From: a virus
Taxonomy: Duplodnaviria > Heunggongvirae > Uroviricota > Caudoviricetes
IMG/VR virus record: IMGVR_UViG_2582580933_000008
Location: 1-6,969 of that record
DNA: 6,969 bases
Direction: 5' to 3' (one strand)
The notes under the pieces were generated by a model. The model was not told the DNA's origin. It did no database searches and saw nothing but the letters and a program-made list of their open reading frames with translations. The position numbers and the translations under genes were made by a program. Shown here piece by piece: positions 5,745 to 6,612 of this stretch. Within the stretch, counting starts at the first letter, position 1; each line of letters starts with the position of its first letter.

Positions 5745-6164
5745 TTAGTGCTTGTATAGGTTGAACTCTCTATCAAGCCATATAACAAAAAATGTCGATC
5801 CAAGACGATAACCAACCATGGCTTTCAAATCATCAAATCTAAAAGCCAAGAAATGATCTACGTCTTCCGTTATATGACTGGGGATACCTGCTTTAATGGC
5901 ACCCCTTGCAATCTTCTCAAATCCAAGCTTATGCCTACCTTGCTGCTTAATCTCTGCCCATGTTAGTTGACTTAATCTGTATAATTTATCAGCTAAGCCA
6001 GCTTTCTCATCTTTTTGGCATTTCGTTATGCAGTGAGAGCTTTGGATGTAACAGAATGAAAATTTCGGTTTCTTTTGATCTGAATTCCCCCCTGACTGCG
6101 GCCCTAACTTTAACTTACCTGTAGATTCAGCAGGGGGGATAATCCTTTTAGATTTTCTTGCCAT
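5745..6164 (-). CDS. Candidate toxin partner of the Panacea-domain protein (139 aa, unrecognised family)
   Basis: ATG 6164..6162 lies 4 nt after the PanA-like stop TAA 6171..6169, suggesting coupled translation. The track's longer form starts at TTG 6239 and would overlap PanA by 71 nt. Translation MARKSKRIIPPAESTGKLKLGPQSGGNSDQKKPKFSF CYIQSSHCITKC ...RHKLGFEKIARGAIKAGIPSHITEDVDHFLAFRFDDLKAMVGYRLGSTFFVIWLDREFNLYKH. Features: a basic, probably disordered N-terminus, a C-x5-HC-x3-C cluster, and a C-terminal region with faint resemblance to HigB/RelE-type patterns (HKLGFEKI..G.P; GYRL...FVI...YKH). The toxin role is inferred from gene context only. Confidence 0.55.
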   Translation of the reverse strand: MARKSKRIIPPAESTGKLKLGPQSGGNSDQKKPKFSFCYIQSSHCITKCQKDEKAGLADKLYRLSQLTWAEIKQQGRHKLGFEKIARGAIKAGIPSHITEDVDHFLAFRFDDLKAMVGYRLGSTFFVIWLDREFNLYKH

Positions 6165-6168
6165 CTCG

Positions 6169-6612
6169 TTAGTTAATCCGAGTTGCAAAGTACTCTGCCA
6201 TCTCCTTAGAGCTAATTTCAGAACCACCAACACCCTCAATATAGTTTGATCTCCATGGTGACTCTTCGTGTGTCATGTTCCTCAGTTTCCAGGCAGAAAA
6301 TTGCCCAAAAACATCCCAGACTTCTTCTAATAGCTCTAACTGTTCTTCGCTGAATTTTTCAGCATCAAAAGACTCTGGAGAAGGGATAGCGCCATTACCA
6401 TATTGTTTATAACGGCGATAAAGCTCAGGGACAACAGGGCCATGCATCCAAGCTTCCATCTTATTCTGAAAAAGAGGCTCGCCAAGCAACGCCAATGAAA
6501 AACCCTGAGCATAGTAAACAAGCTTTTGTAATTTTAAATTAGAGATTGTGTCACCGCTATCCTCGTCACACCGCGACAGGAAGTAGTCGGCGACATCAAA
6601 ACAAGTAAGCAT
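6169..6612 (-). CDS. Panacea (DUF4065)-domain protein, SocA/PanA-like putative antitoxin
   Basis: Translation ...SNLKLQKLVYYAQGFSLALLGEPLFQNKMEAWMHGPVVPELYRRYKQYG...FSAWKLRNMTHEESPWRSNY matches the DUF4065/Panacea consensus as I know it (LQKLlYya.g..l...g.plf...feAw.yGPV.pelY ... H.e.pW). Preferred start is ATG 6612..6610 with GGAGG (plus 6620..6624) 7 nt upstream; the GTG at 6618 in the ORF track is too close to that SD. This gives 147 aa. Confidence 0.8.
   Translation of the reverse strand: MLTCFDVADYFLSRCDEDSGDTISNLKLQKLVYYAQGFSLALLGEPLFQNKMEAWMHGPVVPELYRRYKQYGNGAIPSPESFDAEKFSEEQLELLEEVWDVFGQFSAWKLRNMTHEESPWRSNYIEGVGGSEISSKEMAEYFATRIN

Follow-up and report, generated by a model that had tools for sequence, protein, structure and literature searches.

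The 6,969-nucleotide stretch analysed here (positions 1 to 6,969 of the IMG/VR virus record IMGVR_UViG_2582580933_000008, a member of the Caudoviricetes; hereafter "the window") carries a two-gene cassette in which a Panacea-domain gene, panA, is followed directly by a gene for a 139-amino acid (aa) partner. The cassette is a copy of an already catalogued Panacea-containing, toxin-antitoxin-like pair (PanAT), that of cluster T1, and hence a known element. As to what it does, we put at roughly 0.5 the probability that it serves to exclude or abort superinfection through an RNase that is gated by a trigger, as opposed to encoding a constitutive addiction toxin. The unit is a self-contained phage moron, in which a leader and a terminator enclose two genes that are probably coupled in translation. 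The partner is a divergent protein of predicted RelE/YoeB/HigB fold and most likely a ribosome-dependent mRNA endonuclease. Under this model PanA would bind the RNase directly and hold it inactive; the RNase would not be constitutively toxic, and a cue such as an infecting phage would switch it on, whereupon translation would stop and the lysogen would exclude or abort the superinfection. The parts of the cassette are as follows.

6169 to 6612, minus strand: panA, encoding a 147-aa stand-alone Panacea (DUF4065) protein, ATG at 6612 and TAA at 6169-6171.
5745 to 6164, minus strand: the partner gene, encoding 139 aa, ATG at 6164 and TAA at 5745-5747.
6620 to 6624, minus strand: the Shine-Dalgarno (SD) sequence of panA, GGAGG, 7 nt ahead of its ATG, by direct reading of the sequence.
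6165 to 6171, minus strand: the junction, that is the panA stop codon TAA and a 4-nt spacer (cgag), after which the partner ATG follows, likewise by reading.
5720 to 5743, minus strand: an intrinsic terminator hairpin, AAAACCCACC-GTCA-GGTGGGTTTT and then a T-run, from a terminator scan.
6613 to 6934, minus strand: a non-coding leader of 322 bp, its boundary set by blastn.
5718 to 6934, minus strand: the whole mobile unit (moron) of leader, panA, partner and terminator, delimited by end points shared in blastn.

All genes and all long open reading frames (ORFs) of the window lie on the minus strand. The initial annotation, which was made from the letters alone, had described a tight bicistronic pair with its own SD sequence and terminator, set in a phage genome upstream of same-strand baseplate genes, and this anatomy proved accurate: both ORFs were recovered at the coordinates it gave, together with the 4-nt gap and the hairpin, and the next ATG, at 5701, opens the baseplate run. 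The terminator scan gave a 10-bp stem with the T-run after it, and the same hairpin is annotated as a rho-independent terminator in Salmonella phage vB_SemP_Emek. To judge from its spacing, the junction probably provides translational coupling between the two genes. The leader, which always accompanies the cassette, presumably holds the promoter/operator region.

The product of panA is identical to RefSeq WP_000954425.1, a "Panacea domain-containing protein", and the DUF4065/Panacea call that had been made by eye was confirmed by profile search, the protein matching Pfam PF13274 (SocA_Panacea) at E=1.8e-24 and 87.3 bits, above the gathering cutoff of 25.7, over profile positions 1-112 of 113, and phrog_1281 at E=6.4e-60. 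A sequence search with PanA returned no relative with a solved structure. As Panacea is the SocA domain, and as the protein also matches the NCBIfam SocA_antitoxin equivalog NF047745 (E=7.2e-20), the pair could be read as SocAB-like (type VI), with PanA serving as a ClpXP proteolytic adaptor that lowers the level of the partner and not as a binding inhibitor. However, that match scores 71.4 bits, far under the equivalog cutoff of 190, the predicted fold of the partner is that of RelE and not of SocB, and stable PanA:PanT complexes were found in five non-SocAB pairs (PMC8832971); we consider a SocAB-like mode highly improbable.

At the DNA level, positions 5718-6934 are 99.5-99.8% identical to segments of two phages, the P22-like vB_SemP_Emek (99.5%) and Escherichia phage phiv205-1. 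In Emek the two genes are annotated as orf149 (DUF4065) and orf161 (YP_006560565.1 and YP_006560566.1), and a cluster look-up showed the second protein (P0277) to be the window partner with 22 additional N-terminal residues and the substitution E71D. Gene order, spacing, leader and terminator are all shared, so that this is essentially the same element, although in Emek it occupies the sieA-mnt interval of a P22-like podovirus whereas here it lies in a myovirus-like E. coli prophage, and although the public annotation and the tested construct begin the partner 22 codons further upstream. Kurata et al. (2022, Dataset S1) list the Emek pair under toxin cluster T1 with order A|T, reciprocity 4/5 and an HHpred annotation, and enter its PanA domain as "noNTD", i.e., without an extra domain (PMC8832971). 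The partner had initially been taken for an unrecognised and perhaps previously undescribed PanT; this view has to be given up, since the same pair is listed there as T1, and through YP_006560566.1 the window partner falls within that published PanT cluster. The upstream protein exceeds the Pfam score for Panacea/DUF4065, the two genes share a strand and lie within the 100 nt allowed for PanAT pairs (4 nt here), and their architecture is conserved in at least two species. T1 accounts for at least 217 of the 1,268 predicted pairs in the published table.

Table S1 of the same study gives the predicted mode of the Emek partner as "mRNase" and its result in E. coli, when expressed from pBAD33 with a strong SD sequence, as "not toxic"; a second T1 member, E. 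coli MOD1 WP_077635758.1, was likewise "not toxic" in E. coli, and the neutralisation column reads "n/a" for both proteins (PMC8832971). A bona fide toxin-antitoxin (TA) pair was defined in that work as one in which the partner is toxic alone and is rescued by its PanA (PMC8832971). The toxin role first suggested for the partner is thus at odds with the published assay of Emek and MOD1, with the caveat, taken up below, that neither construct had a native N-terminus. The accessions of the Emek pair are absent from the NetFlax supplements, the Gerdes 2025 survey of RelE/ParE makes no mention of Panacea, and no characterisation of T1 pairs was found in the searched literature of 2024-2026. The finding in itself adds little, as the cassette, its Panacea protein and the partner family were published and tested in 2022; it bears instead on the role of the most abundant class of Panacea partner, one that is non-toxic in the standard assay. 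Three observations sharpen that question, namely the non-native starts, the moron setting and a two-allele pattern.

Linkage between the partner and Panacea is strict. A 143-146-aa Panacea gene lies directly upstream of each of six distant homologues (6/6), which show 44-54% identity and come from Solidesulfovibrio, Aeromonas, one cyanobacterium, one acidobacterium and metagenomes. When the 80 loci contributed by a scan of viral contigs were included, 87 of the 90 loci had PanA as the immediate upstream neighbour in the same orientation. They comprise 43 distinct pairs, with intergenic gaps that range from -35 to +14 nt, and span Enterobacteria, Aeromonas, Desulfovibrionia, Acidobacteria, Cyanobacteria and metagenomes. 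The proposal of a Panacea cassette would have been undermined had homologues of the partner never occurred beside Panacea genes, and the reverse was observed. Two of the three exceptions (L050 and L056) have a partner truncated to 76 aa; in the third, L028 (3688-4423), a deletion has left only the last ~23 codons of panA, now joined in frame to an ORF of tail-assembly type, and the orphan 143-aa partner gene is still intact. Both genes are under purifying selection, since synonymous changes dominate when the window is compared with locus L023 (17 against 2 overall): panA differs by 6 synonymous and no non-synonymous changes and the partner gene by 11 and 2, respectively.

The partner has no family in Pfam and matches phrog_8366, annotated as of unknown function, over its full length (E=3.5e-66). 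Its exact 139-aa sequence (P0271) is present on ~700 contigs, there are 182 close homologues, and a profile built from 40 homologues retrieved 1,527 cluster representatives at E<=1e-3, of which 863 reached E<=1e-10; the best 150 of the 1,527 are nearly all proteins of ~130-146 aa with one matched stretch each. In the alignment a variable, basic N-terminus precedes a conserved core, in which P33, F35, W69, G81, E83, P95, A107, R109, V117, G118, W129, D131 and L136 are invariant and R77, H78, K84, Y119, R120, Y137 and H139 nearly so; the polar members of this set are R77, H78, E83, K84, R109, R120, D131, Y137 and H139. A match to the NCBIfam model MAG6450_fam (E=0.023, below its cutoff) was too weak to use; it may mark a Mollicutes branch of T1.

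No toxin family could be named for the partner when it was first read; structure prediction and a fold search now place it in the RelE/ParE superfamily, with a RelE/YoeB/HigB-like fold. The AlphaFold2 model (predicted local distance difference test score, pLDDT, 87.9; predicted template modelling score, pTM, 0.75) has a disordered, basic stretch at residues 1-30 (pLDDT about 60), after which come beta(34-36), alpha(51-65), alpha(69-74), beta(83-86), beta(104-111), beta(114-121) and beta(124-131), and it shows the two helices on a four-stranded antiparallel sheet of RelE-type proteins. YoeB, YafQ and HigB took the top ranks in Foldseek, albeit with weak statistics (best E-value 0.07, probability 0.82). 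The catalytic residues of YoeB are E46, R65, H83 and Y84, and those of RelE are K52, K54, R61, R81 and Y87. In the model, the conserved E83, R109, R120, Y137 and H139 would lie on the strands and the C-terminal tail that bear these residues.

Further relationships were provided by comparison with known systems. As in RelBE, YefM-YoeB and HigBA, the predicted fold runs beta-alpha-alpha-beta-beta-beta, conserved Arg, Glu, Tyr and His sit on the sheet and C-terminal tail, and the operon is bicistronic, antitoxin-first and coupled. However, the partner has no detectable sequence homology to those toxins, it carries ~30 extra disordered basic residues at the N-terminus and an insertion at 83-103, a Panacea protein takes the upstream place of a RelB, YefM or HigA antitoxin with its DNA-binding domain, and the T1 partner was "not toxic" in the published assay. 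Pairing of Panacea with a BECR-fold RNase-type partner is also seen in PanT clusters T14, T28 and T59 and in MqsR:PanA, but there HHpred or CDD give HigB, YoeB, ParE or MqsR at high probability and T1 is far more divergent; moreover, MqsR-type PanAs carry an extra ZBD-HTH neutralising domain and the window PanA has no extra domain. Residues 31-135 of the partner match the C-terminal effector domain of Menshen NsnC (PADLOC model PDLC03891, profile positions 178-279 of 284, E=5.9e-6), and a 2025 analysis of Menshen assigned 9 of 15 NsnC C-terminal families to the BECR (RelE-type) RNases. The inPIN N-terminal domain is missing from the partner, NsnA and NsnB are not nearby and the neighbours are phage tail genes, hence what is shared is an effector domain and not the Menshen system.

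The partner might, on the other hand, be a RelE-fold protein that is neither toxin nor nuclease, for instance a regulator that binds the ribosome or PanA, or an anti-defence protein, with a role for the phage unrelated to growth arrest. The published "not toxic" results would be accounted for in this way, and it would be perhaps not unexpected that no sequence profile ties the partner to catalytic RelE families, that the structural scores are merely moderate, and that the long basic disordered N-terminus and the insertion at 83-103 are both foreign to canonical RelE. However, the E/R/Y/H set is invariant or near-invariant across ~40% identity and, on the mapping proposed above, would fall on beta2-beta4 and the C-terminal tail, the sites of the catalytic residues in RelE, YoeB and HigB; the same type of domain serves as the effector end of Menshen NsnC; and pairing with Panacea is strict, the Panacea partners of nine other pairs being validated toxins. 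A role of this kind appears unlikely to us.

The start codon of the partner bears directly on how the negative assays should be read. Public annotations begin the gene at four different codons, giving proteins of 139, 147, 160 or 161 aa (window 5745-6239), of which the two longest overlap panA by ~60 nt, the 161-aa form being the Emek sequence that was tested experimentally. The latter begins at a TTG, window position 6230, inside panA, which adds the 22 residues MVVLKLVLRRWQSTLQLGLTNE and corresponds to the reported gap of -62; for the MOD1 form, the reported gap of -20 corresponds to a start at window position 6188 and a 147-aa protein with 8 extra residues encoded inside panA. The short 139-aa start is backed by an invariant M1 in 40 homologues, by its position near the PanA stop in 43 of 43 pairs (gaps of -35 to +14 nt) and by homologues, e.g., L053, that have no room for an upstream extension. 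Because the tested starts lie 22 and 8 codons upstream of this conserved ATG, both "not toxic" results were obtained with non-native N-termini. This caveat on the published assays is a new point. The extension falls on the predicted disordered region of the partner, and on the model the extra residues may well have been harmless in the tested constructs.

If they were not, the cassette could be a classical type II TA or addiction module, in which an always-active RelE-like RNase is neutralised stoichiometrically by a labile PanA and "not toxic" is an artefact of the start codon. The 22 and 8 extra residues of the tested Emek and MOD1 proteins speak for this, given that the true start is backed by the invariant M1 and the narrow range of gaps, as do the antitoxin-first order, the coupling and the catalytic-type residues, which are typical of RelBE-like modules. 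Against it, neither of two independent constructs was toxic in E. coli, in essence the native host; an extension on a region of pLDDT about 60 need not inactivate the fold; the native internal ATG is still within the tested constructs; and L028 retains an intact partner after the loss of PanA. We would not expect a classical module to be the answer.

A trigger-gated RNase is favoured instead because the partner is non-toxic in E. coli, a near-native host, because L028 keeps its partner intact without PanA, because the unit is a mobile moron carried in an accessory region that is expressed during lysogeny, and because the authors of NetFlax prefer a sensory role for Panacea. Conceptually the closest likeness is to CapRel(SJ46), also prophage-borne, in which an antitoxin element senses phage and frees a translation-targeting toxin; however, there a toxSAS toxin is fused to a different antitoxin domain, and the likeness of the T1 pair rests on the model proposed here. 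This reading should be considered with caution, as several results weigh against it. The published toxicity assays of T1 proteins (Emek and MOD1, in E. coli) were negative. The partner gave no sequence match to RelE, ParE, HigB, YoeB or Gp49 profiles, either in Pfam or, using phmmer and the family profile, in the Protein Data Bank (PDB), and hhalign against E. coli RelE and P. vulgaris HigB returned probabilities of <1%, its sole and non-significant segment pairing VGYRL (117-121) of the partner with SGYRL (58-62) of RelE, R61 included. No defence-system model in PADLOC fits the pair as a system. Finally, a consensus promoter scan found no minus-strand sigma-70 site for the pair, so that its expression in the lysogen is an assumption.

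It is conceivable, and we offer it only tentatively, that T1 pairs in general, the largest group of Panacea partners with about 1,500 cluster representatives in metagenomes, are a widespread trigger-gated RelE-like RNase defence module, with Panacea as phage sensor or activator, carried as an exclusion moron by temperate phages and distinct from classical TA. If so, the published "non-toxicity" would reflect either the gating or a mis-set start codon.

The mobility of the unit was apparent from its boundaries. The same ends (5716/5718 and 6934) recur in 16 viral contigs with flanks that are otherwise unrelated or distantly related, and identity across Emek, phiv205-1 and these 16 contigs is 97-99.9%. 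A discrete unit with its own terminator in differing phage backbones is what defines a moron, although the promoter that would complete it has no support from the scan. In P22-like prophages the cassette lies between a sieA-type gene, downstream of a gp16-like DNA-transfer gene, and mnt/arc/ant, its right end ~20 bp from sequence homologous to the annotated sieA promoter of P22. In the window its host is a myovirus-like prophage, near torT, with fragments of tail-fibre genes on one side of it and the baseplate genes on the other (a weakly matching Dit-like gene, Pam3_gp18 plug, Baseplate_J and DUF2612). One distant relative, in Aeromonas, stands just before the baseplate genes of a P2-like prophage, and other relatives adjoin a type I restriction-modification HsdR gene or a P22-like portal gene. 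Placement as a moron in the sieA-mnt region, which is expressed in the lysogen, and in other phage types is the setting expected for superinfection exclusion.

A survey of 5,426 complete E. coli genomes found the full cassette in ~48 and a second allele in ~34. This second allele (type locus L033; phages EC.P3 and E212) keeps the same frame as the window cassette: identity is 93-100% in the leader (6710-6920), 75-88% at the terminator end and 65-75% in panA, and falls to 42-57% in the C-terminal tail of PanA and the first two-thirds of the partner. A second allele with the same frame and a diverged core is a new point. The mosaic could reflect exchange of a specificity core, i.e., specificity switching, or could equally reflect simple physical linkage. 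A count of 232 of the 5,426 genomes was rejected as a measure of cassette prevalence, as ~150 of these hold only a trivial match to a 47-bp flank. That flank (6923-6969) is 100% identical in ~150 complete E. coli genomes, many of them Shiga toxin-producing E. coli, and holds two minus-strand copies of TGATAATGG[A/T]GT, the cassette boundary at 6934 lying inside one of them.

The leader contains two direct repeats, TGCAG[T/G]AAATGTGA, at 6750-6763 and 6793-6806 (43 bp apart), and a perfect 9-bp palindrome, GAAAAGTGA-N5-TCACTTTTC, at 6823-6845, which may be operator sites. A candidate extended -10 element, TGtTATAGT, was noted at 6674-6682 from sequence reading only. A search of 5650-6969 against Rfam gave no family for the leader and only terminator-like sub-threshold matches. 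A coding role for the conserved part of the leader (6710-6920) was also rejected: its only ORF is a plus-strand one of 42 aa without a visible SD sequence, and the region has no Rfam family. The distal leader (6758-6934; 177 bp) also stands alone, without panA or partner, at 99.4% identity in locus L091 (3001-3177; E. coli ETEC6333), where it adjoins a 34-bp sequence homologous to the annotated sieA promoter of P22; either it was left behind when a cassette was lost, or it is a regulatory element in its own right.

With respect to the surrounding prophage, window positions 163-409 are 85-90% identical to side tail-fibre genes from lambdoid phages, HK97-like ones among them, and the remaining tail module of the window belongs to another, myovirus-like type. 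Locus L001 has, just upstream of the cassette, tail-fibre C-terminal fragments annotated as pseudogenes. The combination of a lambdoid tail-fibre end, a myovirus-like module and these pseudogene fragments suggests that the host prophage is a patchwork and possibly defective.

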